Source: Escherichia phage DCP80. Taken from it: a DNA stretch of 64,000 bases. This document shows, piece after piece, positions 7,323-58,231 of the stretch. Every line of letters begins with the position of its first letter. The stretch's first letter is position 1. The stretch lies in sequence record PQ671644.1; one strand, 5' to 3'. The notes beneath the pieces are model-generated. The model saw only the letters and a list, made by a program, of their open reading frames with translations. It was not told where the DNA came from and ran no database searches. The translations under genes were made by a program, and so were the position numbers.

Positions 7323-7405
7323 TTCCCGGTCGCATTATCTTTAAAAATTCTATCAAGAAGTCCAAAAAGTAGGTCTGATAATGAAAATCCTACTTTTGGT
7401 TCCAT
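7323..7405 (-). CDS. t: Holin t, first 27 codons (cut by N-run)
   Basis: MEPKVGFSLSDLLFGLLDRIFKDNATG resembles T4 holin T N-terminus; lies downstream of gene 38 as in T4. Confidence 0.7.
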
Positions 7406-7441
7406 ACTTTTCTCCTTTAAAGATATTTATAATATGGGGTA

Positions 7442-8242
7442 TTATACTCTGCTTCCGTATATCGTACCAACGTTTTGCCAGTTAGGAGCATTACCGGCGA
7501 CTGCTGCCCCAGCATTACCACCAGCACCAACTTTAAGCACTTTACCTCCATCATTCCAAGCGTTTTGGCCTTTAGCACCGACATTCCCACCAGCACCTGA
7601 ATGCGCGTTACCATAATTATAACCACCACCTGCTCCGGTAAGAGATGCCGCCCCACCGGAGTATCCTCCGCCACCAGCTGCACCAAATGGTCTACCGCCG
7701 CCAGCGCCTATATCTTGCCAGTTAGCACCTGAATGGGGTCTATACGCGATGCCACCACCACCGCCACCACCACCGGCTATAGCGCCATTATTACGGATAC
7801 GAAGTTTAGTTCCGGCATTGTTTTGTATGGCTATTCCGCCGGCCTCACCATTACCATTGCCGTCGCTATGGGTCCAGCCTCCTCGGCCTCCTCGACCATA
7901 AACGGTAACACCGCTATTAATATTAAGTTGTATATAAGCATTAGGTAAGTTGCTAGGGAATTCCAGACATGGGTTTCCGCGGTTGTTAGATACCAAGTCA
8001 CCAGTAATTGTAATAACAACAGGCGCACTGCCTTGTGCTCTCATCCAGTTTATAAGGGTGTTTTTATCATAGTTATGATTAGCCCCTATAGATAAGTAAA
8101 TTTCTTTTGATTGGTTAGCCATCGAACCCATCCAACCCGGGACAGCTACACGAACATCTCGCATTGCTGCATCCATCCAACGTTGGCCAGTTTCGTCAAC
8201 TGCAGATTGTCCGACCCAACCAGGTAATCCTACAATTGCCAT
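7442..8242 (-). CDS. 38: gp38 tail-fibre adhesin, T2-type with glycine-rich loops
   Basis: 266 aa; N-terminus MAIVGLPGWVG...QRWM typical of T2-type gp38; several poly-Gly stretches including eight consecutive Gly. Confidence 0.8.
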   Translation of the reverse strand: MAIVGLPGWVGQSAVDETGQRWMDAAMRDVRVAVPGWMGSMANQSKEIYLSIGANHNYDKNTLINWMRAQGSAPVVITITGDLVSNNRGNPCLEFPSNLPNAYIQLNINSGVTVYGRGGRGGWTHSDGNGNGEAGGIAIQNNAGTKLRIRNNGAIAGGGGGGGGIAYRPHSGANWQDIGAGGGRPFGAAGGGGYSGGAASLTGAGGGYNYGNAHSGAGGNVGAKGQNAWNDGGKVLKVGAGGNAGAAVAGNAPNWQNVGTIYGSRV

Positions 8243-8273
8243 AATAAATCCTTAGGGCCCGAAGGCCCTTTTC

Positions 8274-11200
8274 TTAATTTAATTTAGCTTCAAGTTCTCT
8301 AACTTTAGCCGACAGGGTTTTAACTGCTTCAATTAACAGAGCAACTTGTGCCTGAGTCGAAACTGTCAGAACCATATTTTCCTGCGAATCTAAAGACTCA
8401 TGCACCGCTTCAGGTAATACTTCTTTAAGATTCTGAGCAATAACACCTGCTTCAGTTTGAACCGCTTCACCACCGATATATTCAGCTTTATCATAGATTA
8501 AACCGTCGAGCTGTTCAACCTTTTCAAGAGCATTTTCAATAGGCCTGAAGTTTGATTTCAAACGAATGTCAGAACGAATATAAACGTTTGGAGCATTTAT
8601 ATTTTTATATGAGTACAAATCACCGTTTTGGAAACGGAAAGTCTGTACGCCATTCGCATATATGTCTAATAATCCATCGCCATTTTGCTTAATACCGGTA
8701 TCACTATCGCCAATTGTTATACTACTTCCACCGAGTGAGTTAGTTGTATTAACACCAAAGGCACTTGTTTGTGGCATCTGTACTTTACCCGGGCAATCTA
8801 AAATGCCATCCATTGTAAATCGCCATCTTGCTTGTTGGCCGTTAGCGTTATCTCCGCGAATACGAATAATACCTTCTCGCCAACCAGCTGTGGTACCAGA
8901 GCCGACCCATCCAAATTCAAAGGTTTGACGATATCCAGAGGAACCATAGTTGCTGTATGCACCTACAATAGGATAATAACTACCTGAATTAGATAAATCA
9001 CCATGGTCTGCCATAAAGGTGATTTTAGATTTCATTGTATCTGAGGTATCTCCCCAACCAGAGGCACCGCGCCAACCTGCAACCACACGAGACGAGATAT
9101 TGCCTAAACTAGTATTACCACTGGTGACATTAAGGCCGCCCGCCACGTTCAGACCACCACCAGTAATATTCAGACCACTGCCCATGCCTACACGACCATC
9201 AGCCATGTTGATAGAGAAAGGTCTTAAGCCATTCCACAACCCGTCAGTTGCATTCGGGTTTTCTTCCGTGTTTTTATCCGTAACTAAAATATGAAAATTT
9301 TCACCGTCGTTTCTAATCAAAGCGGCATTAGAACCTATATCATTACCGCTGGATTTGATACGCATACCTTTTTGGTTATTGGTAACGTATTCACCACGTG
9401 TAACAATATCCGATTCGCCGGCAGCAAACATTCCGTCAATGTTGTTCAGCATTCTTACAGATTTACCTACAACATGACCTTCAGGTAATGTTTCTACCAA
9501 AGGCTGGACACCGCTATTAATACCCACTACGGTTACTTTACTATTGCTACTGCATGTATATTCTACCGCCAAAGAATTAGAATACCCACCTAAGTAAACG
9601 TAAATATCATAGGTATCTTCGCTTGTATTAACAGAAGCAATCTGAGAAATAGCTTCAGAAGTTCTATTCCACAGCGTAGCATTAAGGCCTTTAGGGTTAT
9701 TATTGCCGGTTCTAAGGACTATTTCGGCTATTGAAGCCTGACCATAACTTTTAAAATTAAATCCAGAACCACCTGATATTTTAAAGGATGCTGTACCCGT
9801 CGCTTGTGGAATTTCTACAGTAGCAAATTTATACCAACCTGTAGTAGCGCCGCCAGCCCAACCGCCTGTGTTAACTTTACGGTCTAACGTTGTGTTCAGG
9901 TTTTTAAAGTTATCTAATGCAGTGCTGCCTGTAATATTACCGTCAGGACCAATACGAACATCGGAACCAATTTTAAGTGCCTTGGTTATATCAACAGTAT
10001 CAGAGTTTAATGCAATACCATGGGAGTATGTATAGTTATGTAAACGAACAACGTTGCCGCCGTCGCCAATACCGAGATACCATTTTGTAACATCTGCTTT
10101 ACGTCCTTGGATAAAGTTGGATGATGCCTGGGATGAAGCATTTACCACAATGGCATCAGAATCCATATTAACACGCAGTCTACAGTCGGTCTGGACAAAT
10201 TTACTTACGTTGTCTACTGTAAAAAGTGGACCATACCCGGCACTTTTATTCCCCATTATAACCGTGCCGGTGGCTAAATTGATAGATAGCGGACGAAGGT
10301 CACTTATTCCACCATTTTCTCCAGCGTTCTGAAGAGTAGGAATAAGATGGAATGAAGCAGAAGAACCTGTTTCTGAACGACGGAAAATCATACCATATTC
10401 GGCATTCCAAATTCTTAATGCATCAGCGGTACCGCCTATTTTAACTTGACCGTTAAAAGTGGCGCCACCATTTATATTCAATCCGTTTGCTGAAGTGATA
10501 CTACCTTCCGATGAAATACTACCAGCAGTAGTCAATCCACCATTTACACGGAATTGAATAGAACCTACGGTTTGGGAACTTGTGGGAGCAACGCGTTGTG
10601 AATAAAAATGCCAACCCTGTCCATCGCCTAATTCAAATACAGTTTCTCTGCTTTTATTAGTGTCATCCTCAAATGCGTTACCCCATACTTTCATGGTCAC
10701 ATAGCTTTTGTTCTGACCCGGGCGGGTGCCTGCGTTCCAAACAATCGTTTTTGTGCCATTGATAGTGGAAGAAGCGCCGAACTTTATACCTTTATTGTTG
10801 TTGTTAGTATTAAAAAATAATTCGTTATCTAATTTAACTGGTTGGGTCGAGGAAACTGTGCCATCGGCTCTAAGATTCAGTTCATTAACCCCGGTTTTAA
10901 TATTCAAAATACCTGGTTCAATAATCATGCCTTCTGCCATAGAAATGGCTACACGACCTGTACCACGGAAATAATGATAAAGTTTACCATTAGAATTATA
11001 ACCTAAATGGGTTTGGCCATCCCCAGAGTTATTACCGTCTATTTCGGTTCTAATAGAAACCATAGAAGAGTTCTGGCCAGGCAGAAGCCAAGTAAGACCT
11101 TGGTCATTACTACGGCCAAATATGGTTTTACTAGTCCCACGGAAGCCGTCGGAAGTAATAGATGCAACGGAATAACCTCCACCAACTAAATCATAAACAC

Positions 11201-12027
11201 CTTGCTTAATATATTTCAGACCGGTTACAGTGTCACCGAGAACAAGATACTTATCGCCCATTACACCGACGTTACCATAATCACTAGACGGGAAACCCGT
11301 AGTGAATGTACCTAATGCAAGGCTATTACGGCCTGCCATTCGTCCGTCATTACGAATGCCATATTGTTTAGATGATGGAGTATTACCTGTCCACCATGAC
11401 ATTTCATCAGCTTGACCTGTCTGGGCGGTGCAAAGCTCATGCCACATAGTGCCACCAGACTTGGCGCGAACTTTACGAAGATAGTTTACACCATTCGTTT
11501 CGCCTGTGCCTGGGTATACATAATTAACTAATGAATCTGTATCATATACACCAAAGGCTTTGCCACCGTGGATAACTGTATCGACTGCAATGCGTTTAGT
11601 TACTAATGAATCTGATGCTAAAATACGGTTGGCCTGAAATTCACCACCATTTATAGAACGGAAATAGAATTCACTATTAGCAGTACCTTCTGTCCCCTGT
11701 TTAATCCTAATGCGTAATTCACCAGCATTTGTAGTTTGAGGACGTGCATATATAACACCGCGTTCACTGCCATCAGCATTTTCAAACCATAAATGGGCAT
11801 TTGATGTTGTATCGTTTGAAGCTCTTGAATAAAACGAGCCTTGCAACGCTCTAAAAGTTTGAGCCGAAATACTAGTGCCTGCTGTAATCGACCCGCTTGT
11901 AGAAAAGTTTCCAAAATTGTTTAATGGGCCGTTAATGCGTAAAGTTCCATTAATAGTTACATCCCCGTCAACCTGCCCACCTTTAGCAAAGCCCAAATCA
12001 ATAATCTGTCCCTGGTCTGACTTAGTN
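8274..12027 (-). CDS. 37: Long tail fibre distal subunit gp37, T2-type with C-terminal chaperone-like domain; N-terminus lost at N-run
   Basis: More than 1250 aa; N-terminal half near-identical to T4 gp37; C-terminus carries SDIRLKSNF motif and coiled-coil tail instead of the T4 His-box tip. Confidence 0.9.
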
Positions 12028-12062
12028 NNNNNNNNNNNNNNNNNNNNNNNNNNNNNNNNNNN

Positions 12063-12246
12063 GCGGAAAGGGGGTGTTATGAAAACATTCAAAGATTTTA
12101 TCAACGAAGATATGGTTGCAGGTGATGCAGGTGGAAACCCAACTAATATCACAACAGGTACCACTTCCGGGGCAGTTGTCAATAAAGGCCCTGAACAAAT
12201 CCCATCAAAAAAGCGTAAGAACAAAGACGATAAACCTACAGTATAA
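12063..12246 (+). CDS. 3' end of an ORF emerging from the N-run (possibly gene 41 C-terminus by synteny)
   Basis: Open frame from the gap ending ...PSKKRKNKDDKPTV; immediately upstream of gene 61. Confidence 0.3.
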
Positions 12247-12278
12247 TGGTCCTTCGGGGCCATTGAAATGAGGAAACT

Positions 12279-13307
12279 ATGTCATATATTGATAAAGAAT
12301 TTGCAGTCAGAGCTTTATCGTATCAACCACGTTATAGAGAAGTCACCGGGAGCACATTTAAAGCAAACTGCAGATGTAAAGTTTGTGGCGACTCCCAGAA
12401 AGATTCACATAAAGCCAGATTCTGGGCGTATACTAATCCGGCTGATGGCGCGGTTTACGTGAAATGTTTTAACTGTGACTACTCCACGCATATAAGCAAA
12501 TACATAAAAGAGTTTGAGCCGGATTTGCACCGGGAATATATGGTTGAGAAGTACAAGGAGAACGCCTTCGGGCGACAACGCACTGAAGTTGTCGAAACTC
12601 CGAAAGAACCAGAAAAAACTCCGGTTATCGAACAGCTTGCTTTTTGTGAAAGACTCGATACTTTACCAGAAGCACATCCGATAGTTAAGTATGTAAAAAG
12701 TCGATGTATTCCAAGCAATGTTTGGAACCGGTTATGGTTTACAAACCAATGGCCCGCATTAGTTAACTCCGTCAATCCTGGGACGTATAAGAATGAAACG
12801 AATGAACCACGCTTGGTTATTCCTATCTTCAACGGCAAAAAAGAAATCGAATCTTTCCAAGGACGAGCTCTTCGCAAAGATGCACCACAAAAATATATCA
12901 CAATCAAAGCTCACCCAGAAGCTTCCAAAGTCTATGGCGTAGACAAGATTGATGAGCGTAAACGCGTATGGGTAATGGAAGGTCCAATTGATAGTTTGTT
13001 TATCCCTAACAGCATTGCGATAACTGGTGGCACATTGTCATTGGAAGCAGTTCCTTATGCTGAAACCAGAGTATGGGTAATGGACAACGAGCCAAGACAT
13101 CCGGATACGATTAAACGTATGAAGAAGCTCGTTGAAGCTGGCGAAGCTGTTATGTTCTGGGACAATGCACCATGGCATACGAAAGACATAAATGAGATGG
13201 TTAAATCAGAAGGGGCAACCCCTGAACAAATCGAATCATATATGGCCGATAACGTTGCTCAAGGATTGATGGCGAGAATGCGACTTTCGAAGTACGCAAA
13301 AGTTTAG
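12279..13307 (+). CDS. 61: DNA primase gp61
   Basis: 342 aa; zinc ribbon CRCKVCGDS...CFNC and toprim region near-identical to T4 gp61. Confidence 0.92.
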   Translation: MSYIDKEFAVRALSYQPRYREVTGSTFKANCRCKVCGDSQKDSHKARFWAYTNPADGAVYVKCFNCDYSTHISKYIKEFEPDLHREYMVEKYKENAFGRQRTEVVETPKEPEKTPVIEQLAFCERLDTLPEAHPIVKYVKSRCIPSNVWNRLWFTNQWPALVNSVNPGTYKNETNEPRLVIPIFNGKKEIESFQGRALRKDAPQKYITIKAHPEASKVYGVDKIDERKRVWVMEGPIDSLFIPNSIAITGGTLSLEAVPYAETRVWVMDNEPRHPDTIKRMKKLVEAGEAVMFWDNAPWHTKDINEMVKSEGATPEQIESYMADNVAQGLMARMRLSKYAKV

Positions 13308-13363
13308 GAAGGGATTCCGGTAAAGTAACCGATGATGGAATGAATATGTTCTATTGTGACCTG

Positions 13364-13385
13364 GGGTAAGTGCACCCCTTGTGTT
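13364..13385 (+). terminator. Stem-loop terminator candidate downstream of gene 61
   Basis: GGGGT-AAGTGC-ACCCC hairpin followed by TTGTGTTG. Confidence 0.4.
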
Positions 13386-13415
13386 GCAGCGATAGGCACA
13401 ACCAGTAAGTTCCAC

Positions 13416-13613
13416 CTATATAAGGCCGATTAATGCTAGTGAAACATCTACAACTGATTCGAGCGCGACGACTGGCAATATAACACCATGTGCCAATGCA
13501 ATAGGGGCAACAATGAAATTCCAGAGTAGAACAAAACAGAGTATCGAAAGGACCAGAATCGTTCGCTTACGACTGCCTTTGATGGCTTGAATTAGACTAG
13601 ATAGTTTGAGCAT
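13416..13613 (-). CDS. Small hydrophobic membrane protein, opposite strand
   Basis: 65 aa, two predicted TM segments, AAAGGAGGA RBS; conserved in the second copy of this block. Confidence 0.45.
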   Translation of the reverse strand: MLKLSSLIQAIKGSRKRTILVLSILCFVLLWNFIVAPIALAHGVILPVVALESVVDVSLALIGLI

Positions 13614-13697
13614 ACATCCTCCTTTCTTGTATTTATGCTTTAAACCAATATGATATAATTAACATACAAACAATATGAATTGATAAGGAAAAATATA

Positions 13698-14216
13698 ATG
13701 GCTCATTTTAACGAGTGTTCTCAACTGATTGCTGGTGTTGATAAAGCGCAAGATGCGTATAATGATGTCCTAAAAGGCAATGATGACCCTCTGCAGATTA
13801 TGCTTGATATGCAGAAATCTTTGCAGGTTCGTCTGGCTACAGAAAAACCAGAATATAACGCACATCCAGATGAATTGGCAACCGCAGGCGATGTTGTTGC
13901 ATGGCTTCGTAACCAGAAAGATTATGTCGACGACGAATTCCGTGAACTTCTGACTTCGCTCGGTGGCATGTCTAATGGTGAGAAAGCCGCATCCAGTTGC
14001 TGGAAGCCGTGGAAAGCGCAACATGCTGAATATCGTAATCGTCGTATTGATGAACTGTCTCCTGAAGACCAGCTCGAAATTAAATTCGAAATGATTGATA
14101 TTCTGCACTTCGTTCTGAATATGTTTCAAGGTCTGGGTCTTTCTGCTGAAGAAATCTTTAAACTGTATTACTTGAAAAATGCCGAGAACTTTGCTCGCCA
14201 AGACCGAGGTTATTAA
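13698..14216 (+). CDS. 56: dCTP pyrophosphatase gp56
   Basis: MAHFNECSQLIAGVDKAQ...EEIFKLYYLKNAENFARQDRGY, near-identical to T4 gp56; ORF-track start 13680 is an upstream TTG. Confidence 0.9.
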   Translation: MAHFNECSQLIAGVDKAQDAYNDVLKGNDDPLQIMLDMQKSLQVRLATEKPEYNAHPDELATAGDVVAWLRNQKDYVDDEFRELLTSLGGMSNGEKAASSCWKPWKAQHAEYRNRRIDELSPEDQLEIKFEMIDILHFVLNMFQGLGLSAEEIFKLYYLKNAENFARQDRGY

Positions 14217-14497
14217 TGGCTCGTTTAAATAAACGTCAACTTAAGAAAGCTCGTAAGAAGCATATTAATGCTATAATTGAAAACGCTAATGTTGAAATCT
14301 TTGTAGAACTCTTAGCCAATCAACTAAAAAATTTATCTAAACAAGAAATTGATATGAATACTGAAAATGCTAAAAATGTAATCGAAACTCATAATGTTTT
14401 TGCTCAAGCTACAGCCGAATACATTGCCAATCCTACTGCTGAAAATCTAGCTAAAATGACTGAAGCCAATAAAGCAGTCCAAGCCGCCAAATTGTAA
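14216..14497 (+). CDS. Hypothetical protein
   Basis: 93-aa ORF coupled to gene 56 stop (ATGA overlap), Lys-rich N-terminus. Confidence 0.5.
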   Translation: MARLNKRQLKKARKKHINAIIENANVEIFVELLANQLKNLSKQEIDMNTENAKNVIETHNVFAQATAEYIANPTAENLAKMTEANKAVQAAKL

Positions 14498-14499
14498 GT

Positions 14500-14507
14500 T
14501 ATAAATA
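14500..14507 (+). promoter_or_regulatory. T4 late promoter box TATAAATA upstream of soc
   Basis: Exact TATAAATA about 30 nt upstream of soc start. Confidence 0.6.
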
Positions 14508-14538
14508 CACCTGTAATTAAACAACAAAGGAGTTTATT

Positions 14539-14772
14539 ATGGGTGGTTTCGTTAATATCAAAACCTTCACGCATCCAGCTGGTGAAGGTAAAGAAGTTAA
14601 AGGCGTTGAAGTATCAGTTCCGTTTGAAATCTATTCGAACGAGCACCGTATTGCTGATGCGCACTATCAGACTTTCCCTTCGGCCGTTGCAGCATATACT
14701 ACTGTAGTGACTGATGCAGCCGATTGGCGAACTAAGAACGCGGCAATGTTTACGCCTACCCCAGTAGTTTAA
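14539..14772 (+). CDS. soc: Small outer capsid protein Soc
   Basis: 77 aa; GFVNIKTF...AHYQTFPS... resembles T4 Soc; late promoter upstream. Confidence 0.8.
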   Translation: MGGFVNIKTFTHPAGEGKEVKGVEVSVPFEIYSNEHRIADAHYQTFPSAVAAYTTVVTDAADWRTKNAAMFTPTPVV

Positions 14773-14777
14773 TTATA

Positions 14778-14802
14778 GGGAACCTTCGGGTTCCCTTTTT
14801 TG
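14778..14802 (+). terminator. Rho-independent terminator
   Basis: GGGAACC-TTCG-GGTTCCC hairpin followed by TTTTTTG. Confidence 0.7.
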
Positions 14803-14849
14803 CTTTTAATAGAGATGGTATAATTATTTCAACTACAGAGGAGAATACT

Positions 14850-15047
14850 ATGTTAAACCGTTGGATTAAACCAAATAAAACTTTAGATGAAGTTATTGCC
14901 CATGATGTGCATTTTAAGTATGGTCTGGGTGTGTTTGACGAGGTTGTCGTGCACTCGTTCATGATGCACGATGATGATTCTTTAGAATTCAATATTGAAA
15001 TCCGTTATGATGATGGTCAAGTTGAATTTAAACGAGGTTTCCTATGA
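14850..15047 (+). CDS. Hypothetical protein
   Basis: 65-aa ORF with GAGGAGAA RBS. Confidence 0.5.
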   Translation: MLNRWIKPNKTLDEVIAHDVHFKYGLGVFDEVVVHSFMMHDDDSLEFNIEIRYDDGQVEFKRGFL

Positions 15048-15403
15048 TTAGTTGGCTCAAGAATTTATTCAAGACTAAACCTGGTGAAGGGGTGGTTCCT
15101 GTTAGCCTGCCAGATGTTAAACTAAGAGAATATGTTTACATGGGCGATGGTATGATGGAAGAAGTTCGTCGCCGCCCAGAAAAAGCCGGTAATGTCGGAC
15201 CAGGCGCATTGCCATTGAATTCGAAAAAGTTAAAAGAGCATCTGGATTCAAGACGTTCTACAAGCCATGTCGATACTACACCGCATATTGATATGACTCC
15301 GATTGTGGTTACTGCGGCCGCTGTCAGTTCGTGGACTGGTGATTCGTCTTATTCCTCCTATGATTCAGGAAGCTGCGATTCATCTTCCAGCTCGTGTGAT
15401 TAA
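15044..15403 (+). CDS. Hypothetical protein with Ser/Cys-rich C-terminus
   Basis: 119-aa ORF, start overlaps upstream stop; C-terminus SYDSGSCDSSSSSCD. Confidence 0.5.
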   Translation: MISWLKNLFKTKPGEGVVPVSLPDVKLREYVYMGDGMMEEVRRRPEKAGNVGPGALPLNSKKLKEHLDSRRSTSHVDTTPHIDMTPIVVTAAAVSSWTGDSSYSSYDSGSCDSSSSSCD

Positions 15404-15598
15404 ATGAGAATTACAAGTTGGCTTAAAGATTGGTTGGTTACCCCGGGGATTGATGATTCCTGGGTGGCCAGAGCCGAGGAAGAAATGCAGCGCGAAGCTG
15501 AAGAATGGGCCGCCGCAAGCGTCAAAGATATGCAGGAAAAGAAGACCGAACGAGCTGTGCTTAAACTGATGCGTGATATCTACGGAGATAAATCATGA
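15404..15598 (+). CDS. Hypothetical protein
   Basis: 64-aa ORF, identical protein in second copy at 44193-44387. Confidence 0.5.
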
Positions 15599-15744
15599 CA
15601 CAAGAAGAAGCTGAACGTCAGGCAAAAGAAGCACTGGATTTGCTTTTGAAAATTGGCAGTAAAATGATGGAAGAAAATGAAAAGTACATCAAGGAAAATA
15701 AAGTTCCTGATGGTCCATTAGTTGGTAAGAGGAAAACATTATGA
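15595..15744 (+). CDS. Hypothetical small protein
   Basis: 49-aa ORF with ATGA overlaps at both ends. Confidence 0.35.
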
Positions 15745-16229
15745 AAGTATATGAATTAGAATTCTATGTCCGTGATTCTGCTGGGCAAACACGACCTTAC
15801 GATGCAACAGCCTGTCTTATCTTTGCATATAATGGCATGGATTCGGTTACTGAGTTGGAAACAAAATTAATGAACCTGACGATGCCAGAAAATGTCATGA
15901 TGAAGGTATTTCATAACAAAAACGTTAATGTGGCTGAAGGGTGTCCGTTTACTGTTTCCGAAGCTCTACACATTAAAGGCTATCGTCACCCGGACCCTTA
16001 TGCAGAAGGTACTGCGGATATCTTCTATAAAGATACCGATAGAATTTCAGAAGAACGCCTTAAAGGTCGCACATATCTGATTTCCACTACCGACGACCTT
16101 GCTGAAGTTGAACGTCAGATTTGGAAGCACTTTGATATCGGTCTGCGCTTTACTTTAACAGAAGAAGCTATTCAAGATACTAAAATGCGTGCTCGTATGT
16201 ATGGTTACGGTCCGATTGGTGGTTACTAA
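15741..16229 (+). CDS. Hypothetical protein
   Basis: 162-aa ORF, RBS AGGAAAA. Confidence 0.55.
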
Positions 16230-16405
16230 TGGATTTATTTGAACTTTTTGAAGAGCCTAAAGCTCCCACAGAAGCCCGTGTGGACCTAGTTGACGAACTT
16301 GATGCGATTATACAGAAGCACGGTTTTAGTCTCCCATTGGAAGTTCTGCGCGACCTGGCCTCATATTACGACGACCCACCTCCATGGGCACCATGGAAAC
16401 AGTAG
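16229..16405 (+). CDS. Hypothetical small acidic protein
   Basis: 58-aa ORF overlapping upstream stop. Confidence 0.4.
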   Translation: MDLFELFEEPKAPTEARVDLVDELDAIIQKHGFSLPLEVLRDLASYYDDPPPWAPWKQ

Positions 16406-16562
16406 TTTACTTACTCCCCTCCTAATGACATAATGACCTTTCTTACAACAGAGAGGTCATTATGAACATCATCAAATCTGATACCGAACCCAACCAGTTA
16501 AAATTTAGTGAAATGGAGATAGCTTCANNNNNNNNNNNNNNNNNNNNNNNNNNNNNNNNNNN

Positions 16563-16782: not shown

Positions 16783-16806
16783 AGGACCCTTCGGGGTCCT
16801 TTTTTA
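16783..16806 (+). terminator. Rho-independent terminator
   Basis: AGGACCC-TTCG-GGGTCCT hairpin followed by TTTTTT. Confidence 0.7.
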
Positions 16807-16810
16807 TTTT

Positions 16811-16870
16811 AAAAAGTAGTGTACAACCAGATGGTCATAAGACATAATGATTCCATACTGAGTTACCAAA
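16811..16870 (+). promoter_or_regulatory. Early promoter cassette, family A
   Basis: -35-like GTGTAC 16819-16824, 18-nt spacer, -10 CATAAT 16843-16848, conserved ATTCCATACTGAGTTAC leader. Confidence 0.6.
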
Positions 16871-20062: not shown

Positions 20063-20806
20063 ATGACACGTAACGAATATATCCAGGCCTTTAACGCAAC
20101 TATCGACACAAAAGTAAAACCATTGACAGGCGAATCGGCTATCCTTTTAATTATCAATTATTGGTTAAATCAGATTGATTCGACGATTGTTGCATCTGGT
20201 CGCTTCAAGAAAGACATTGCAACTATTGCGAGTCGTGCCGGTAATGATGATATCAAGAAAACTTTTAAAGGTTCCAGAGTCCTGGCGTACCTGGTTAATA
20301 AAGACCTTCTTCATAAGTTTGGTGTTGAATCCAACCGCGGTAAAGGTACAATTGGGTATCATTGGTTTGGCGATGTTGAAAAATACTACCTTGATAAACA
20401 AGGCTATACTGTTTCTGAATTCGCACATTGCTGGGCTCGTGAATTCAGAGATAACAAAATGTCTATCATAAAATCAGCGACAAAATTGATGGGCGGTGAT
20501 TTTCGCACTATCTCCCATTTGGCTGAGCACATGATAAAGGTTAAAGAGTCTGGTGAAAACCAGGTAATTATTACAGTTAAGCATGAGTTCTTTACGCCGG
20601 TGGCTACTCCAGAAAATGTCAAAAAGTATCTTGATGTTGCCTGTACGCTTTCTCATCAGCTGGTGTGTGCCCTTAACTATATGCGCACTGTTGAAAAAAT
20701 TAAAGTAGACCCTATCACCAGTGCTCATGGTTGGAAAGGTTGGAAAATTGTGGTGACATTACCGACGATGAAGATGAGGACGATGAATAATGTTTATTAT
20801 CCCTGA
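20063..20806 (+). CDS. Hypothetical protein
   Basis: 247-aa ORF, RBS GAGGAGAA. Confidence 0.6.
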
Positions 20807-22728: not shown

Positions 22729-24288
22729 ATGAAAAAGAATGCATTAGTTCAAAAATGGTCCGCTCTGTTGGAAAACGAAGCTCTTCCGGAAATCGTTGGT
22801 GCTTCTAAACAAGCTATCATCGCTAAAATCTTTGAAAACCAGGAACAAGATATTCTGACCGCTCCTGAATACCGTGACGAAAAAATCTCCGAGGCATTTG
22901 GTTCTTTCCTGACCGAAGCTGAAATCGGTGGTGACCATGGTTATGATGCTACCAATATCGCTGCTGGCCAGACCTCTGGTGCAGTAACTCAGATTGGGCC
23001 GGCAGTTATGGGCATGGTTCGTCGTGCTATCCCGCATCTGATTGCGTTTGATATTTGTGGCGTACAGCCTCTGAACAACCCGACTGGCCAGGTATTTGCC
23101 CTGCGTGCAGTATACGGTAAAGACCCTGTAGCTGCTGGTGCTAAAGAAGCTTTCCACCCGATGTATGCTCCGAACGCTATGTTCTCTGGTCAGGGCGCTG
23201 CTGAAGCTTTTGAAGCACTGGCTGCAAGCAAAGTTCTGGAAGTTGGTAAAATTTATTCTCACTTCTTCGAAGCAACCGGTTCTGCACACTTCCAGGCTGT
23301 TGAAGCTGTAACTGTTGATGCTGCTGCTACTGATGCCGCTAAACTTGACGCCGAAGTTACCAAACTGCTCGAAGCTGGTAAGCTGGCCGAAATCGCTGAA
23401 GGTATGGCTACCTCTATCGCCGAATTGCAGGAAGGCTTCAACGGTTCTACTGATAACCCGTGGAACGAAATGGGCTTCCGTATCGATAAACAAGTTATCG
23501 AAGCTAAATCCCGTCAGCTGAAAGCAAGTTACTCCATCGAACTGGCACAGGACCTGCGCGCTGTTCATGGTATGGATGCTGATGCCGAATTGAGTGGTAT
23601 TCTGGCTACCGAAATTATGCTGGAAATCAACCGCGAAGTTATCGATTGGATTAACTACTCCGCACAGGTTGGTAAATCTGGTATGACCAACACCGTTGGC
23701 GCTAAAGCTGGTGTGTTTGACTTCCAGGACCCGATTGATATCCGTGGCGCTCGTTGGGCTGGTGAAAGCTTCAAAGCCTTACTGTTCCAGATTGATAAAG
23801 AAGCCGCTGAAATCGCTCGTCAGACTGGCCGTGGTGCAGGTAACTTCATCATCGCTTCCCGTAACGTAGTTAACGTGCTGGCTGCTGTTGATACTTCTGT
23901 TAGTTATGCTGCTCAGGGTCTGGGTAAAGATTTCAACGTTGACACCACTAAAGCTGTGTTCGCCGGTGTTCTGGGTGGCAAATACCGTGTATACATCGAC
24001 CAGTATGCTCGTGCAGACTATTTCACCATCGGTTATAAAGGCGCTAACGAAATGGATGCTGGTATCTACTACGCACCATATGTTGCACTGACCCCGCTGC
24101 GTGGCTCTGACCCGAAAAACTTCCAGCCGGTTATGGGCTTCAAAACCCGTTACGGTATCGGTATCAACCCGTTTGCTGACCCTGCTGCTCAGGCTCCGAC
24201 CAAGCGCATTCAGAACGGCATGCCGGACATCGTTAACAGCCTTGGCTTGAACGGTTACTTTAGACGTGTATATGTTAAGGGAATTTAA
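22729..24288 (+). CDS. 23: Major capsid protein gp23
   Basis: 519 aa, roughly 85-90 percent identical to T4 gp23 by eye, ending FRRVYVKGI. Confidence 0.95.
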   Translation: MKKNALVQKWSALLENEALPEIVGASKQAIIAKIFENQEQDILTAPEYRDEKISEAFGSFLTEAEIGGDHGYDATNIAAGQTSGAVTQIGPAVMGMVRRAIPHLIAFDICGVQPLNNPTGQVFALRAVYGKDPVAAGAKEAFHPMYAPNAMFSGQGAAEAFEALAASKVLEVGKIYSHFFEATGSAHFQAVEAVTVDAAATDAAKLDAEVTKLLEAGKLAEIAEGMATSIAELQEGFNGSTDNPWNEMGFRIDKQVIEAKSRQLKASYSIELAQDLRAVHGMDADAELSGILATEIMLEINREVIDWINYSAQVGKSGMTNTVGAKAGVFDFQDPIDIRGARWAGESFKALLFQIDKEAAEIARQTGRGAGNFIIASRNVVNVLAAVDTSVSYAAQGLGKDFNVDTTKAVFAGVLGGKYRVYIDQYARADYFTIGYKGANEMDAGIYYAPYVALTPLRGSDPKNFQPVMGFKTRYGIGINPFADPAAQAPTKRIQNGMPDIVNSLGLNGYFRRVYVKGI

Positions 24289-24303
24289 TCCTTAATAAAT
24301 TTA

Positions 24304-24332
24304 AGGGACTCTTCGGAGTCCCTTTCTTGTTT
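24304..24332 (+). terminator. Rho-independent terminator after gene 23
   Basis: GGGACTC-TTCG-GAGTCCC hairpin followed by T-rich run. Confidence 0.75.
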
Positions 24333-24614
24333 TCATACCATACCATTTAAATGAACTTCTACCCGGCGCTTGATGAGGTCTCTGAAGTTAACATTGTTTT
24401 CTTGAAGTTTCAACCAATTACCATTTTTATCTTTAGTGTGAGTAGAATAATTACCATTCCACCAGAAATCAGTGTCATATGCTAAGTTTTCATATTTTTT
24501 AACTAGTTTGTTCAGAGCATTACCATTAACACCATTTGGGTATTTGTTGACCAATGCAATAACTTCAATTTCCAGATTTTTAAAGGTGTTCAGAAGGAAA
24601 GTTGATTTGTTCAT
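24333..24614 (-). CDS. Hypothetical protein, opposite strand between genes 23 and 24
   Basis: 93-aa ORF with its own family-A promoter on the minus strand. Confidence 0.5.
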   Translation of the reverse strand: MNKSTFLLNTFKNLEIEVIALVNKYPNGVNGNALNKLVKKYENLAYDTDFWWNGNYSTHTKDKNGNWLKLQENNVNFRDLIKRRVEVHLNGMV

Positions 24615-24630
24615 TTTTAAACTCCATTGT

Positions 24631-24690
24631 TTGGTAACTCAGTATGGAATCATTATGTCTTATCTTAATCTGGTTGTAAACAACTTTTAT
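24631..24690 (-). promoter_or_regulatory. Early promoter cassette, family A, minus strand
   Basis: Minus strand: GTTTAC (plus 24676-24681), 18-nt spacer, CATAAT (plus 24652-24657), then ATTCCATACTGAGTTACC. Confidence 0.6.
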
Positions 24691-24695
24691 AAATA
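24688..24695 (+). promoter_or_regulatory. T4 late promoter box TATAAATA upstream of gene 24
   Basis: Exact TATAAATA 27 nt upstream of gene 24 ATG. Confidence 0.6.
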
Positions 24696-24721
24696 AAGTA
24701 TATCACAAAAGGAAAGCGCAA

Positions 24722-24921
24722 ATGGCAAAGATTAACAAATTACTGCGCGAGTCAACTACCACTACCAGCAACTCCTTGGGCCGCCCGAATCTTGTTGCTT
24801 TGACCCGCGCTACAACCAAATTGATTTACCGCGATATTATCGCTGAACAACGTACAAGCCAGCCAGTTGCGGCGCTGTATGGTGTTAAATATCTTACTCC
24901 TGATAATGAATTCAGTTTCCA
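24722..24921 (+). CDS. 24: Head vertex protein gp24, N-terminal part (cut by N-run)
   Basis: MAKINKLLRESTTTTSNSLGRPNLVALTRATTKLIY... near-identical to T4 gp24 N-terminus. Confidence 0.85.
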
Positions 24922-24962
24922 NNNNNNNNNNNNNNNNNNNNNNNNNNNNNNNNNNNNNNNNN

Positions 24963-25045
24963 TTCCCGGTCGCATTATCTTTAAAAATTCTATCAAGAAG
25001 TCCAAAAAGTAGGTCTGATAATGAAAATCCTACTTTTGGTTCCAT
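24963..25045 (-). CDS. t: Holin t, first 27 codons (cut by N-run); identical to copy at 7323-7405
   Basis: Same MEPKVGFSLSDLLFGLLDRIFKDNATG; located downstream of T4-type gene 38. Confidence 0.7.
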
Positions 25046-25085
25046 ACTTTTCTCCTTTAAAGATATTTATAATGCTTTTGCGCTA

Positions 25086-25631
25086 CTATTTTTTAAACCA
25101 TCTTTTGAAGAATGATTTTTTCTCTTTTTCTGGCCAAGCCGGGAATTCACCACCGAGGTGTTCGTGTTTTTCTAAAAGAGCAAAGAAACGTTTAAGATTC
25201 TGGTGATAGAATTTTTCTTTCTTATCGGCGACTGAGGCTTCAACCATATTACTTAATACCTGGAATTCTTTATACAAATCGTCAATTTTTCGATTGCGAA
25301 TCATTACTCGTTTATATGTTTCATCTTCTTTCCAGCCATCATCTGTCCATATATCAAACTCGCCAGGTTTATCGAAAGTTATACCGACTGGGCTTCCTAT
25401 GTCATTTATTAAGATTTCTTCTTTATTAAAAGTCCATGCACGTTTGCCTCGATGGTCTTCTTCATAAATCCAATCTTGAATGCGTTCGTCAAATACAACG
25501 GCATACCCTTCTTTAGGTTCTAAAGGTTTTTTAGCTGTTGAATGGGCCGGAAGGCCAAGGCCTTTAATGGGTTTATAATTTTCTTCTTTGTAGAATTCTT
25601 TTGTGTCAAAATAAAAATGATAAATTTTCAT
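25086..25631 (-). CDS. 38: gp38, T4-type tail fibre assembly chaperone
   Basis: MKIYHFYFDTKEFYKEENYKP...HLGGEFPAWPEKE near-identical to T4 gp38 (183 aa); ORF-track start is an upstream TTG. Confidence 0.9.
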   Translation of the reverse strand: MKIYHFYFDTKEFYKEENYKPIKGLGLPAHSTAKKPLEPKEGYAVVFDERIQDWIYEEDHRGKRAWTFNKEEILINDIGSPVGITFDKPGEFDIWTDDGWKEDETYKRVMIRNRKIDDLYKEFQVLSNMVEASVADKKEKFYHQNLKRFFALLEKHEHLGGEFPAWPEKEKKSFFKRWFKK

Positions 25632-25658
25632 ATTCAAAAGGGGCCGAAGCCCCTCTCC

Positions 25659-28600
25659 TTATGCTAAACGAACGATATAGTTAAAAGCAATGTTTTTAAC
25701 CGTGTTTTCTGTATTACCTGTACTATTTACGGTAATGGTATGCCCATGTGAACCAATCGCTACAGTATGAGTGTGAGCACCGATACCTACCGTATGCGTG
25801 TGAGCACCAATACCTACAGTATGAGCGTGGTTACCTGTGGCACTTGTGGTCCCTGACCAACTATGAGTATGAGCACCGTCTGAAGAAGTTTTGGCTATAT
25901 TCGACCCTGCAGTAGCACCGCTCACGGTTCCAGTGATTTTAGCGTTGGCGTTTGCACCTACACTATTATATCCGTCATAGAATATGTTATTGGGTACGCC
26001 GGCTTGCATCTGAGGGCCTGAACGCGCGTGTTGGTGTGCTCCGGCTGAACTGGTAGTACCACTCACTGTATGGTTATGGTTACCGGTGGTATTACTGGTC
26101 TTAGTACCATAATCAAAGCTTGAAGATGTTTTAGTGCCATAATCAAAGCTTGATGTGGTTTTAGTACCCAAGTCAGTACTCGAAGCAGATGCGCCATGGT
26201 TATGAGACTTAATACCATCAGCTTCTGCACTCAACACTGCGCGGCCACTTGGTTTACCCTTGATAGTTTGTCCACGCATATCAGGAATAGTACCAGAAGG
26301 ATATGCAACAGCAAGCTTAGGATAAGCACCTGTATCAAAGGTCTGACCTTCCATCAAAGCATAACCATTAGGAGGAGTATCCGTTGGCCATGGAATTGGG
26401 GCTCCAATAGGATAACTTGAAACAATATCAGTTTTAAGTGATTCAATTGTACTGTTTAAGTTAGCAAAGTTACCAGAGCCACCGGTGATATTACCATCAG
26501 TTCCTAAAGTTGTGTTGCCTACAATAATTTTACCAGGTAAGCGGAAGTCACCGGTGCGGCGGAATTCCCAACTTAAATCAGTTCCGGTAGTACTATTGCC
26601 CTGGTGATAATGAACGCGGAAGTCTCCTTGAGAAATTAAGGTGCCAATAGAATAAGTGCTATCACCATTTACATACCGTTGTTTAACAATAGGAATGTAT
26701 TCAGAAGTAGCAGTACGCTCTATATTCATATAAATTGGAGCCCTGACATCTGCGTAATTCTGAGATGCAAACGAACCAGCTCCTGCTGGGCGTACCGTAT
26801 CAGTACATTCGGCCTCAATATATGTCGACTGCCCCAATTTCATTCTAAAATTGGCATTAATGCGAGAGTTACTGTTTATCGTAGTTAAAGCATTATTTTG
26901 ATCTACTATAAAAGAATCTCTTCCTAATCCAACCATACCATCGTTTAATCCTATTCTCACAGGTCTCAAAGAGCTGTGAATGTCTCCACTTTCGCCTTCA
27001 TTTTGATTGGTTGGAAGAATATAAAAGTTACTTTCTGAACGACGGAAAATAGCGCCATATTCAGCATTCCAAATTCTTAATGCATCTGCTGTTCCACCAA
27101 TTTTTACTTGTCCGGTAATAGAAGAACCACCTTGGACAAACAAACCGTTAGACATAGTAACATTGCCACCAAAAGAACCTGTACCGGAGGCACTTATATT
27201 TCCAAGGCCTATGATATGGTCTGTTTCAACAGCTCCGTTAAATTTAAAGTTAACTGGACCTACTGTTTGACCTGACGCAGGATTAGTACGTTGAGCGTAG
27301 AAATAATAACCTTGTGAATCTGAAACTTCGAATACAGTTTCTCTATTACCGCCACCTGTATTAAATGAATTACCCCACGCTTTAATAGATATATAGTTTT
27401 TATTCTGTCCTGCGCGAGTACCAGCGCCCCACAGTATAGTTTTAGTGCCATCTAATGATGTAGGTGCATCAAGTTGAATACCGTCAGCTCTAGCCCCGGT
27501 AAGAAGTACCCCGTTATCAAATTTAATTCTTTGAATAGAAGAAATAGTGCCGTCAGCATAAAGCTGTACATTATTAGCGCCGGTTACCAGTTTAAGAATA
27601 CCTGGGTTAAGTTCCATGCCTTCTTGGGTGTTAATATTGGTTTGACCTCTACCGCGGAAATAGTGCGACATTTTTCCGCCAGAGTTATAACCAATATGCG
27701 TCTGACCATCGCCAGCTGTATTCCCGTCAGCCTGAGTTTGAGCTGATAAAAATGCAGCATTGGTTCCAGGCATAATCCATGTGGTGCCTTGGTCTTCTGA
27801 ACGACCAAATAAACCTTTACGAGTACTACGGAAACTATCTGGAGTAATAGAAGCAACTGAATTCCCTGAACCAACTAAATCATAAACACCGGTTTTTTTG
27901 TATGACAGCCCCGTCCCGTTATCGCCTAGAGCTAAATAAACACCGAATCCTAAAGCGGCACCATTACCATAGTCGCTTGACGGGTATCCTTCAGTCACAG
28001 TACCAATGGCCAAGCTATTGCGAACAATCATTCTGCCGTCATTACGAATACCATATAGTTTATATGTTGGTGTATTACCAGACCACCAAGAAACCTCATC
28101 AGCTTGGCCTAATTGGGCCGTACAAATTTCATGATACATTGTACCACCAGACTTGGCGCGAACTTTACGAAGATAGTTTACACCATTCGTTTCGCCTGTG
28201 CCTGGGTATGTATATTTAACTAATGAATCAGTGTCATATACACCAAATGCTTTGGCATCGTGAATAACTGTATCAGCTGCAATGCGTTTTGTTAATAACG
28301 CATCCGAAGCTAAAATACGGTTAGCCTGAAATTCACCGCCGTTTATAGAACGGAAATAGAATTCACTATTAGCAGTGCCTTCTGTCCCCTGTTTAAGCCT
28401 AATGCGTAATTCACCAGCATTTGTAGTTTGAGGGCGAGTATATATAACACCACGTTCAGTGCCATCGGCATTTTCAAACCAAAGGTGGGCATTTGACGTA
28501 TCGTTTGTTGCTCTTGAATAAAACGAACCCTGTAATGCTCTAAAAGTTTGAGCCGAAATACTCGTGCCTGCTGTAATCGACCCGCTTGTGGAAAAGTTTC

Positions 28601-28832
28601 CAAAATTGTTTAATGGGCCATTAATGCGTAAAGTTCCAGTAATAGTTACATCGCCATCAACTTGTCCACCTTTTGCAAAGCCCAAATCAATAATCTGTCC
28701 CTGGTCGGACTTGGTAAAAATAGTGCGGTCACGCAAGTTAATAGCCAGTTCGCCTTCATCTAACTGAGCTGCAGTAGGCTTGGCTCCTGGTGTTTTACTT
28801 CTTTTAAATTGTATCGATTTTAAAGTAGCCAT
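25659..28832 (-). CDS. 37: Long tail fibre distal subunit gp37, T4-type with His-box tip
   Basis: 1057 aa; N-terminus [13 protein letters not shown] and C-terminus [47 protein letters not shown] as in T4 gp37. Confidence 0.95.
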
Positions 28833-28840
28833 AATGCCTC

Positions 28841-29045
28841 TTAATAATATCCAAAATCTTCAGATGTACCTCTAAGAACAACCTGGTCAATACGAGGAAC
28901 GTGTTCGTTCAATGTTCCTGGGTTCCTAGATATGAAATTCGGGGCTGAAAGAACACCAGCCATAGATTGTATGTTACTATTATTTATTTGGACCTGTTTT
29001 GCGTTATCCACATCACTTAATCCAACTTGTGCTTTTGTCGGGGTA
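28841..29045 (-). CDS. 36: Tail fibre subunit gp36, C-terminal part (cut by N-run)
   Basis: Frame open from gap, stop adjacent to gene 37 start as in T4 36-37. Confidence 0.65.
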
Positions 29046-39822: not shown

Positions 39823-40498
39823 TGCTATTATTGACTTTGAAACTCTGGGAAACGGCTCGAAGGGAGCCGTTATTGACCTGGCCCTGATTACATTCGAATC
39901 TGACCCTGCTATTGTGGAATCGTTCGAAACCCTGGTTAATCGCGGCAAACGCATTAAGTTCAGCCTTGAATATCAAAAAGGTAAGCGGCTGTTCGACACA
40001 ACAACTATGGGTTGGTGGAAAAAGCAATCAGCCGAAGCACGTGTTAACCTGGTCCCTTCTGCGCAAGATGTTGATACTCTGACTGGTATCCAACAAGCAA
40101 TTGACTATCTGAATGACAATGGAATTAACAAATACGAAAGCCTTATGTGGTGCCGTGGAATGTCTTTTGACTTCCCGTTGTTTGTCGACCTTATCCGCGA
40201 CCTGCAGCGCAATGAGGGGATTCCTGAGCGCGAATTGAATACCTATAACCTGGAGCCGGTTGTATTCTGGAACCAGCGAGATATCAGAACAGCAATCGAA
40301 GCCCTGTCACTCGTCCGTAAAATGTGTGAAACTCCATTACCAAAGGGGACTTTAGATGGATTCGTGGCGCACGATTCGGTACATGACTGTGCGAAAGATA
40401 TTTTGATGCTTAAGTACGCCCAGCGCTATGCCCTTGGTTTAGATGAAGTTCCTTCCGAAGAAGATGCAGACCCATTATCTTTGCCGAAAAAACGATAA
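39815..40498 (+). CDS. dexA: Exonuclease A (DexA)
   Basis: 227 aa, MIDAIIDFETLGNG...CRGMSFDFP...HDSVHDCAKD near-identical to T4 DexA. Confidence 0.92.
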   Translation: MIDAIIDFETLGNGSKGAVIDLALITFESDPAIVESFETLVNRGKRIKFSLEYQKGKRLFDTTTMGWWKKQSAEARVNLVPSAQDVDTLTGIQQAIDYLNDNGINKYESLMWCRGMSFDFPLFVDLIRDLQRNEGIPERELNTYNLEPVVFWNQRDIRTAIEALSLVRKMCETPLPKGTLDGFVAHDSVHDCAKDILMLKYAQRYALGLDEVPSEEDADPLSLPKKR

Positions 40499-40499
40499 A

Positions 40500-40560
40500 A
40501 AGTAGTGTACAAGGCCAATGGAAAGAGACATAATCATCTCATCAACTACTGATGAGGACA
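40500..40560 (+). promoter_or_regulatory. Early promoter cassette, family B
   Basis: GTGTAC 40505-40510, 18-nt spacer, CATAAT 40529-40534, CATCAACTACTGATGAGGA leader. Confidence 0.6.
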
Positions 40561-43231: not shown

Positions 43232-43900
43232 TTGGGCTATAATGCGCGTATGTTAATAAATACGCGCAAGGATTTACAAGTGATTATAGATAAATTTGTT
43301 GAAGTTAAAATCATGTACTGTAATTATCAGTATTTTTTGGATTTGGGATACGACTTGAAACCATTAGGTGCCGCTAAGTGGGGCTATAAATCACAAGTGA
43401 TTATGGCTAAAGTTGAAGATATGCTCCCGGGTTCAAACAAATATGTCAATTGTCAATGTGATAAATGTGGTGCTACATTTAAACAAAGAATTGCCAGGAA
43501 CACAGATGTGTGCTATCCATGCCGCAAAAATTCTTTTATGAAGGGAAATAAATTAGGCGAAGCAAATAAAGGAAAGGTTATTTCCTGTATGCAAGGTGAT
43601 AAACATCCAAGATGGAATCCTAACAAAAAAGAATTTGATGCATATGGAAGACGTGTTAGATGGTTAACTCTCAAACAAAAAGATATTTGGTCAAAATGGG
43701 AAAATGCAGATAAGATAGGAAAATGTGGTGTAGAAGGTGCATATCAACTTGACCACAAAGTTTCTATTGCATATGGATTTTATAATCACATACCAGAGAC
43801 TGTTATCGCTTCGCTCAACAATTTATCTATAGTCACTTGGGAATCTAATAGGTCCAAAGGAAAATCAAATAGTATTGACTTATGGGATATATTATCCTGA
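43232..43900 (+). CDS. HNH endonuclease with N-terminal Cys cluster (free-standing homing-endonuclease-like)
   Basis: 222 aa; CQCDKCG...CYPCRKN zinc-ribbon-like motif and YQLDHKVSIAYGFYNHIPETVIASLNNLSIVTWESNRSKG HNH motif; sits between 18 and 19 where T4 has no gene. Confidence 0.65.
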   Translation: MGYNARMLINTRKDLQVIIDKFVEVKIMYCNYQYFLDLGYDLKPLGAAKWGYKSQVIMAKVEDMLPGSNKYVNCQCDKCGATFKQRIARNTDVCYPCRKNSFMKGNKLGEANKGKVISCMQGDKHPRWNPNKKEFDAYGRRVRWLTLKQKDIWSKWENADKIGKCGVEGAYQLDHKVSIAYGFYNHIPETVIASLNNLSIVTWESNRSKGKSNSIDLWDILS

Positions 43901-44126: not shown

Positions 44127-44192
44127 NNNNNNNNNNNNNNNNNNNNNNNNNNNNNNNNNNNNCTTTTGCCTGACGTTCAGCTTCTTCTTGTG

Positions 44193-44387
44193 TCATGATT
44201 TATCTCCGTAGATATCACGCATCAGTTTAAGCACAGCTCGTTCGGTCTTCTTTTCCTGCATATCTTTGACGCTGGCGGCGGCCCATTCTTCAGCTTCGCG
44301 CTGCATTTCTTCCTCGGCTCTGGCTACCCAGGAATCATCAATCCCTGGAGTAACCAACCAATCTTTAAGCCAACTTGTAATTCTCAT
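44193..44387 (-). CDS. Hypothetical protein (second copy of 15404-15598)
   Basis: Identical 64-aa protein. Confidence 0.5.
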   Translation of the reverse strand: MRITSWLKDWLVTPGIDDSWVARAEEEMQREAEEWAAASVKDMQEKKTERAVLKLMRDIYGDKS

Positions 44388-44938: not shown

Positions 44939-45014
44939 AGTATTCTCCTCTGTAGTTGAGATAATTATACCATCTCTATTAAAAGCAAAAAGGGAACCCG
45001 AAGGTTCCCTATAA

Positions 45015-45248: not shown

Positions 45249-45289
45249 AATAAACTCCTTTGTTGTTTAATTACAGGTGTATTTATAAC

Positions 45290-58228: not shown

Positions 58229-58231
58229 AAT

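Follow-up and report, generated by a model that had tools for sequence, protein, structure and literature searches.

At two places in the DNA of Escherichia phage DCP80 (PQ671644.1), a block of about 3.4 kb carrying genes for DNA primase, dCTPase and the small outer capsid protein is written in opposite orientations, with slight differences between the copies. The first-pass annotation of the stretch analysed (64,000 nt, referred to here as the window) left two readings of this arrangement, i.e. two co-assembled strains or a genuine large inverted duplication, and the question is which of them accounts for the data. We conclude, with a probability of roughly 0.93, that the inverted duplication is an assembly artefact, in which two contigs represent the same T4-like locus of two closely related strains.

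The repeat and its genes

The repeat exists as it was first described. Copy 1 and copy 2 (Table 1) form one colinear match of 3.38 kb with an identity of 96.71%, far above chance, and differ at 115 columns (111 substitutions and 4 gap columns). The extent originally proposed for the block, 12063-16527, proved to be that of the whole contig which holds copy 1 (contig A), while the repeated part covers only a portion of it. Divergence between the copies is patchy, ranging from 1 difference per 200 nt (positions 13251-13850) to 15-17 per 200 nt in gene 56. In a local divergent patch of gene 61, CCAGAAACCAGAGTATGGGTGATGGACCATGAACCGCGACATAAA, copy 2 has 8 sites of its own over a span of 45 nt.

The genes of contig A are, in order, 61.1, 61, a membrane ORF, 56, an ORF of 93 aa, soc, mrh.2, mrh.1 and srh, followed by modA.4, modA.3, modA.2 and a truncated modB. 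The product of gene 61 is annotated as DNA primase in phage 212, VR20 and others, and its match to DNAG_N is weak, falling under the Pfam cut-off. The numbers of amino acid changes per protein agree closely with those claimed from first inspection (about 10 in gp61, 4 in gp56, none in Soc, and a one-residue indel in the Ser/Cys-rich ORF, where we found a substitution as well). The alleles of the 93-aa ORF differ by 4 aa, and those of Mrh.2 and Srh by 0 aa each. Neither copy contains stop codons or frameshifts, the dN/dS value for copy 1 versus copy 2 is 0.067, and both copies are under strong purifying selection.

Table 1. Positions of the repeat, of its genes and shared ends, and of related features of the window
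Feature	Position	Strand	Counterpart (strand)	Remarks
Contig A	12063-16527	+		4465 nt; N-run on each side
Copy 1	12251-15628	+	44163-47536 (-)	Portion of contig A matched by contig B
Contig B (all of copy 2)	44163-47536	-	12251-15628 (+)	3374 nt; N-runs on both sides; alternative allele of the same locus
Repeat arm 1	12251-14800		44987-47536	2550 nt, 97%
Repeat arm 2	14789-15320		44468-44999	95%
Repeat arm 3	15314-15628		44163-44477	97%
Identical 111 nt	12251-12361	+	47426-47536 (-)	Right-hand terminal 111 nt of contig B; base 112 differs
Identical 111 nt	15518-15628	+	44163-44273 (-)	Left-hand terminal 111 nt of contig B; base 112 differs
gp61, DNA primase	12279-13307	+	46480-47508 (-)	36 nt and 9 aa differences
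65-aa membrane ORF (phrog_2024)	13416-13613	-	46174-46371 (+)	1 aa difference
gp56, dCTPase (dUTPase_2)	13680-14216	+	45571-46107 (-)	30 nt and 4 aa differences
Soc, small outer capsid protein (PF16855, 1.2e-17)	14539-14772	+	45015-45248 (-)	9 nt and 0 aa differences
Mrh.1-like Ser/Cys-rich ORF (DUF7206)	15044-15403	+	44388-44744 (-)	1 substitution and a 1-residue deletion
N spacer left of contig A	12027-12062
N spacer right of contig A	16528-16562
N spacer left of contig B	44127-44162
N spacer right of contig B	47537-47582
Tail-fibre contig, allele 1	7323-12026	-		T2-type Gp38 adhesin and gp37; same starting 111-mer as 24963-29045
Tail-fibre contig, allele 2	24963-29045	-		183-aa ORF and 1057-aa gp37; first 111 nt as in 7323-12026, base 112 differs

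A window built of length-sorted contigs

The window is divided into blocks by 15 N-runs and by one break without Ns (20762/20763). The 15 complete blocks are arranged in strictly falling order of length (5205, 4704, 4465, 4200, 4159, 4083, 4050, 3812, 3696, 3384, 3374, 3362, 3355, 3305 and 3194 nt), which would be expected by chance with a probability of 1/15! = 8e-13. When compared with the T4-like Gaprivervirus Escherichia phage 212, each block maps to a separate, non-adjacent place and with an orientation of its own. Genes are truncated where the blocks end, and at the 20762 break a phrog_1435 protein stops at position 242 of the 334 in the profile. An exact search of viral_contigs for the junction 20762/20763 gave no match. 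The N spacers of the window vary in length (0-58 nt), and contigs of more than 5.2 kb or less than 3.0 kb are absent from it. It can be observed directly that the window is a pseudo-molecule, in which contigs sorted by length were joined end to end, so the order and orientation of the blocks carry no meaning. Apart from the shared 111-mers described below, no dovetail overlaps of at least 15 nt were found between any two block ends, which places the neighbours of the window's contigs outside the window.

The N-runs might alternatively be regarded as masked parts of a continuous sequence. This reading was rejected, since the sequences on either side of each N-run map to reference positions tens of kb from one another, in many cases on opposite strands, and the block lengths are sorted.

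Copy 1 and copy 2 are separated by eight N-runs and the N-less contig break. Because they sit on different concatenated contigs, their “inverted orientation” is an accident of the way in which the contigs were written out. Both edges of copy 2 are N-runs, which begin 111 nt past the outermost variant sites, and no sequence connects this copy to unique flanks of its own. The co-assembly of two strains is supported. A genuine large inverted duplication has no support, given the location of the copies on different contigs of a length-sorted list. The N-runs, including those which bound both copies, the non-syntenic order of the blocks and the tail-fibre allele pair had been overlooked in the first-pass annotation.

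Two alleles of one locus

The shared ends of the two contigs are directly visible: at either end of copy 2, identity with copy 1 extends over exactly 111 nt, and no 112-mer match was found there. The same length recurs at three independent ends, two of them belonging to copy 2 and one to the tail-fibre pair. Such 111-nt ends are characteristic of an alternative path through an assembly graph with k=111. Within the repeat, however, some runs of identity exceed 111 nt (up to 269 nt). Copy 2 would have been split into pieces there by a graph of k=111 alone, and the assembler must therefore have used reads or read pairs to carry each path across.

The relationship between the alleles is equally plain from comparison with phage 212. 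Contig A is colinear with positions 22828-27291 of this phage (98.4% identity), and contig B corresponds to positions 26392-23016 (97.7%), so that the reference span of copy 2 is nested inside that of the contig holding copy 1. Within the shared span, the identity is 98.28% between copy 1 and phage 212, 97.72% between copy 2 and phage 212, and 96.71% between the copies themselves. At all of the differing columns (115/115) phage 212 matches one copy or the other. Each copy is thus nearer to phage 212 than to its sister copy, i.e. the two are not mutual closest relatives. Among 591 records of related phages the block was found at 595 places, with a single occurrence in each of the 12 best records listed, and the locus is essentially single-copy across this set. 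In exact searches, the left end of copy 2 matched only the IMG/VR copy of phage VR20 (a contig of 170336 nt), a 45-mer specific to copy 2 had no match in metagenome_contigs, genome_contigs or viral_contigs, and the gp61 proteins of both copies were absent in identical form from the encoding-contig index.

Another allele pair was observed directly in the two tail-fibre blocks, which share only their starting 111-mer; beyond it, their identity is 79-92% and they carry different gp38/gp37 modules. The right end of block 7323-12026 shares no 111 nt with block 24963-29045 (only 2 nt are identical), and this contig therefore ends for another reason. The existence of two distal tail-fibre modules which exclude each other and leave the same flanking 111-mer shows that the assembly contains two genomes.

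These observations bear on the possibility that a single Gaprivervirus genome carries a second, diverged and inverted primase-to-srh block elsewhere, and that the assembler broke at the ends of the repeat. In its detailed form, this explanation assumes that a primase-dCTPase-soc-srh copy diverged by ~3% was acquired from a related strain, and that purifying selection maintains both copies. A diverged repeat placed in two contexts would also yield contig ends on shared k-mers, so that the 111-nt ends by themselves do not decide the matter, but copy 2 is joined to nothing, having N spacers at both ends, and its orientation within a concatenated contig list is arbitrary. Flanking contigs could exist unseen, as contigs above 5.2 kb or below 3.0 kb fall outside the window. 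However, the greater similarity of each copy to phage 212 would require either that the duplication predates the split from this phage and was followed by loss there, or that the second copy was acquired from another strain. The number of places at which the locus occurs in the related records also argues against a duplication. The intactness of the two copies would suit a duplication, yet redundancy might relax selection, whereas the selection on both is strong; the tail-fibre pair, moreover, reveals two genomes in any case. We consider a duplication within one genome very improbable, and the detailed version of it no less so.

It could also be proposed that the alleles reflect polymorphism within one phage population (a recombined or evolved lysate, or a mixed cocktail) and not two independent wild strains. 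The patchy divergence has the form of the mosaic that recombination would be expected to leave, and a partner is present for only 2/17 blocks of the window. The nucleotide divergence of 3.3% is nevertheless far above the level of a clonal lysate, and the tail-fibre modules are entirely different (a T2-type adhesin versus another type). This explanation, which we judge to be scarcely more probable than a duplication, is a refinement of the two-strain explanation more than a true alternative to it.

Under the preferred explanation of two co-assembled strains, the sample would have contained at least two closely related Gaprivervirus phages, near Escherichia phage 212. In a fragmented short-read assembly, strains only a few percent apart may cause two paths to be retained in the graph. 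For the primase-to-srh locus, one path would have given contig A, and the alternative path the shorter contig B, starting and ending on k-mers common to the first path. The contigs would then have been sorted by falling length and joined with N spacers; their similar lengths would have brought both into the same region of this list, and the writing of one of them on the opposite strand would have created the apparent inverted duplication. We infer that the alleles belong to two phage genomes which replicate separately, and not to a single genome, and the nature of the assembler, as well as its k value, is deduced in the same manner.

Regarded as a duplication, the repeat has no biological importance, and its value is practical. 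Since the whole window strings together contigs that are unrelated to each other, any findings which rely on how features are ordered, oriented or spaced, or on which of them are neighbours, are void where an N-run or the 20762/20763 break intervenes, and ORFs that read through N-runs or over this break are artefacts. The window does show that two or more related T4-like coliphages, differing in their tail-fibre adhesin modules, were present in the sample. Such mixtures are ordinary for phage material of faecal or sewage origin.

Comparison with known systems

Like T4-type terminal redundancy, the repeat involves a few kb of sequence present twice in a T4-like phage. The redundancy that results from T4 headful packaging is direct, identical and located at the ends of the molecule, and it is collapsed by assemblers. 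It was rejected here, in agreement with the opinion first expressed that it would give identical copies: the two copies differ at 115 columns, are written on opposite strands, and lie on separate contigs internal to the list. The likeness to the invertible segments of Mu and P1, or to inverted terminal repeats, is only formal and consists in the presence of two inverted arms. Unlike in those systems, the arms are not connected by continuous DNA, no recombinase or crossover sites are associated with them, and they are whole clusters of housekeeping genes.

The locus is a typical example of the early/middle cluster 61-56-soc-mrh-srh-modA of Gaprivervirus (Tevenvirinae), and neither its gene content nor its gene order departs from that of Escherichia phages 212, P896, PSD2001 and VR20 (identity to VR20, 92-94%). 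From the Gaprivervirus phages in the database, both alleles differ by ordinary substitutions and by the divergent patch in gene 61.

The closest parallel is found in the bubble branches, or haplotigs, of de Bruijn assemblies of mixed strains. Such contigs are normally confirmed through read depth and graph links, whereas the present case is made from the sequence, and here N-spaced concatenation disguises the contigs as one sequence. In both, a shorter contig is nested within a longer one, with the same gene order and a divergence of a few percent, and exactly k bases are common to the main path (here 111 nt, at three ends, with other loci behaving alike).

The inverted repeat and its genes

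A repeat search of the window recovered three abutting inverted arms of 95-97% identity (see table). A single alignment of the two copies, copy 1 within the block 12063-16527 and copy 2 filling the block 44163-47536, gave 96.71% identity over ~3.38 kb, with 111 substitutions and 4 gap columns. The inverted repeat described in the first-pass annotation is present at its position, and the amino acid differences counted there agree closely with our gene-by-gene recount: nine in gp61, four each in gp56 and the 93-aa ORF, one in the 65-aa membrane ORF, one substitution plus a one-residue deletion in the Ser/Cys-rich Mrh.1-like ORF, and none in Soc, Mrh.2 or Srh. The genes were identified from Pfam and PHROGs matches and the annotation of colinear phages; the Soc, dUTPase_2, DUF7206 and T4_MRH matches pass the Pfam cut-offs, while the DNAG_N match is weak and falls under its cut-off. 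Among Gaprivervirus 61-56-soc-mrh-srh-modA clusters, this locus is an ordinary example.

The gp61 gene of copy 2 carries a divergent patch (residues about 254-275; 8 sites in 45 nt, unique to this copy among seven aligned phages), which causes four amino acid changes. The patch resembles a short tract recombined in from a lineage that has not been sampled.

Coordinates of features in the window
Feature	Position	Strand
Inverted arm 1	12251-14800/44987-47536	
Inverted arm 2	14789-15320/44468-44999	
Inverted arm 3	15314-15628/44163-44477	
Divergent gp61 patch, copy 2	46690-46734	
Starts of N-runs 1-8	2053, 7308, 12027, 16528, 24922, 29046, 33153, 36995	
Starts of N-runs 9-15	40719, 44127, 47537, 50945, 54358, 57668, 60917	
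T2-type Gp38 adhesin	7442-8242	
183-aa ORF, other tail-fibre module	25086-25637	
Group I intron match in nrdB	47688-47971	+
Intron insert in nrdB	47712-48022	
PF00268 match, nrdB exon 2	48046-48525	
Tail sheath gene	41232-43211	
Insert relative to phage 212	43212-43905	
222-aa ORF in this insert	43232-43900	
GTGTACA-core repeats	16803-16866, 24634-24693, 40489-40551, 51150-51212, 51484-51546, 53059-53122, 54104-54167, 58170-58229	both
tRNA cluster	52219-52452	+
82-nt direct repeat	60003-60084/60267-60348	

The window as a list of contigs

The whole window was mapped to the closest complete genome, that of Escherichia phage 212 (PQ765507.1). Consecutive pieces of 3-5 kb map tens of kb apart and in either orientation. 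The joints between them are runs of N (15 in the window, 5-58 nt), apart from a single N-less joint at 20762/20763, where phage 212 position 165513 abuts 108254. With this joint taken as a boundary there are 15 complete blocks, whose lengths fall strictly (5205, 4704, 4465, 4200, 4159, 4083, 4050, 3812, 3696, 3384, 3374, 3362, 3355, 3305 and 3194 nt); the probability of this by chance is 1/15!, about 8e-13. Genes are truncated at the block ends. The patchwork mapping, the N joints, the falling lengths and the cut genes together show that the window is a list of length-sorted assembly contigs, concatenated with N spacers of 0-58 nt. Contigs are ordered by length in the output of Shovill, a SPAdes wrapper.

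The order, orientation and distance of the blocks therefore carry no biological information, and any other finding that depends on how features are ordered, oriented or placed next to one another across their joints is unsound. Two ORFs are artefacts: 20063-20806, a phrog_1435 protein that ends at profile position 242/334 and continues for a few codons of the next block, is a fusion of a truncated gene across the N-less break, and 8274-12263 joins a tail-fibre gene to the reverse strand of the primase contig by reading across the N-run 12027-12062.

Several other features were recorded. The nrdB gene is interrupted by an ORF-less group I intron (Rfam RF00028, 74 bits), an insert of 311 nt that phage 212 lacks at that site. 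Another insert of ~690 nt relative to phage 212, directly downstream of the tail sheath gene, holds a phrog_5104 ORF with a weak treble-clef zinc-finger match, possibly a gene of mobile or homing type. Repeats of 60-100 nt that share conserved GTGTACA...CATAATGATTCCATACTGAGTTAC-type cores form a family resembling T4-type early promoter regions, with a downstream segment that is also conserved. Block 51003-54357, the only one 100% identical to phage 212, contains a cluster of three tRNA genes (Met-CAT, Asn-GTT, Arg-TCT). The two units of the 82-nt direct repeat are 84% identical and lie 264 nt apart between small ORFs; with its GC-rich hairpin, GGCGTCCAAAGACGCC, the repeat looks like a duplicated terminator-like element.

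Copy 2 as a probable alternative assembly path

The block holding copy 1 is colinear with phage 212 positions 22828-27291 (98.4%) and copy 2 maps to 26392-23016 (97.7%), so that copy 2 falls entirely inside the stretch covered by copy 1. Copy 2 stops at N-flanked contig ends, which are not boundaries in any biological sense. At each end of copy 2 exactly 111 nt are identical to copy 1 before the first difference, and at neither end is the terminal 112-mer common to both copies. The same exact identity recurs at a third place, the start of the tail-fibre blocks 7323-12026 and 24963-29045, which have their initial 111 nt in common and differ at base 112. In a de Bruijn assembler, a path between shared nodes yields a contig ending exactly k bases beyond the outermost variants; with 150-nt reads Shovill uses k values of 31, 51, 71, 91 and, at most, 111. 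Judged from these ends, copy 2 would be one of two paths in a de Bruijn graph with k = 111. Identical stretches within the repeat reach 269 nt, and the assembler therefore used read or pair information to carry the paths across.

Two genomes or one

Shared k-mers would likewise mark the ends of a diverged repeat lying in two contexts of one genome, and the window contains only contigs of 3.0-5.2 kb. A true second copy of the primase-to-srh block within one genome is nevertheless unsupported and very improbable, considering the relationships of the copies to phage 212, selection, the record counts and the tail-fibre pair. Identity to phage 212 across the shared span is 98.28% for copy 1 and 97.72% for copy 2, against 96.71% between the copies, and in all 115 differing columns one copy has the phage 212 state (copy 1 in 68, copy 2 in 47); the copies behave as two orthologous lineages rather than recent paralogues. 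Both gene sets are intact, with 71 synonymous and 19 non-synonymous changes (dN/dS 0.067). Divergence is uneven: gp56 has 15-17 differences per 200 nt, the surroundings of the membrane ORF about 1; such patchy mosaicism is usual among T4-like phages. Across 591 related phage records there are 595 occurrences of the block, a single one in each of the best 12 listed.

The tail-fibre modules start from a common 111-mer on the holin-side flank. One (block 7323-12026) encodes the T2-type Gp38 adhesin (PF05268, 3.6e-67) and a gp37 with a terminal Peptidase_S74 chaperone domain, and the other (block 24963-29045) the 183-aa ORF and a Collar-domain gp37 of 1057 aa. Since two alternative modules depart from one flank, the assembly contains at least two genomes; receptor use probably differs between the two strains.

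Five lines of evidence thus point to an origin of the copies in two genomes, and the alleles may derive from two wild strains, from a cocktail or from a population undergoing recombination, all of which are compatible with the sequence. Of the two explanations offered by the first-pass annotation, co-assembly of two strains is retained. The genuine inverted duplication finds no support: the copies lie on separate contigs rather than on one common molecule, copy 2 lacks flanks of its own, and the copies are not mutual nearest relatives. Terminal redundancy, a direct, identical and terminal repeat, does not fit the copies either. The apparent inverted duplication is an artefact of contig concatenation, and it matches a known behaviour of assemblers, the production of bubble or haplotig contigs from mixed strains.
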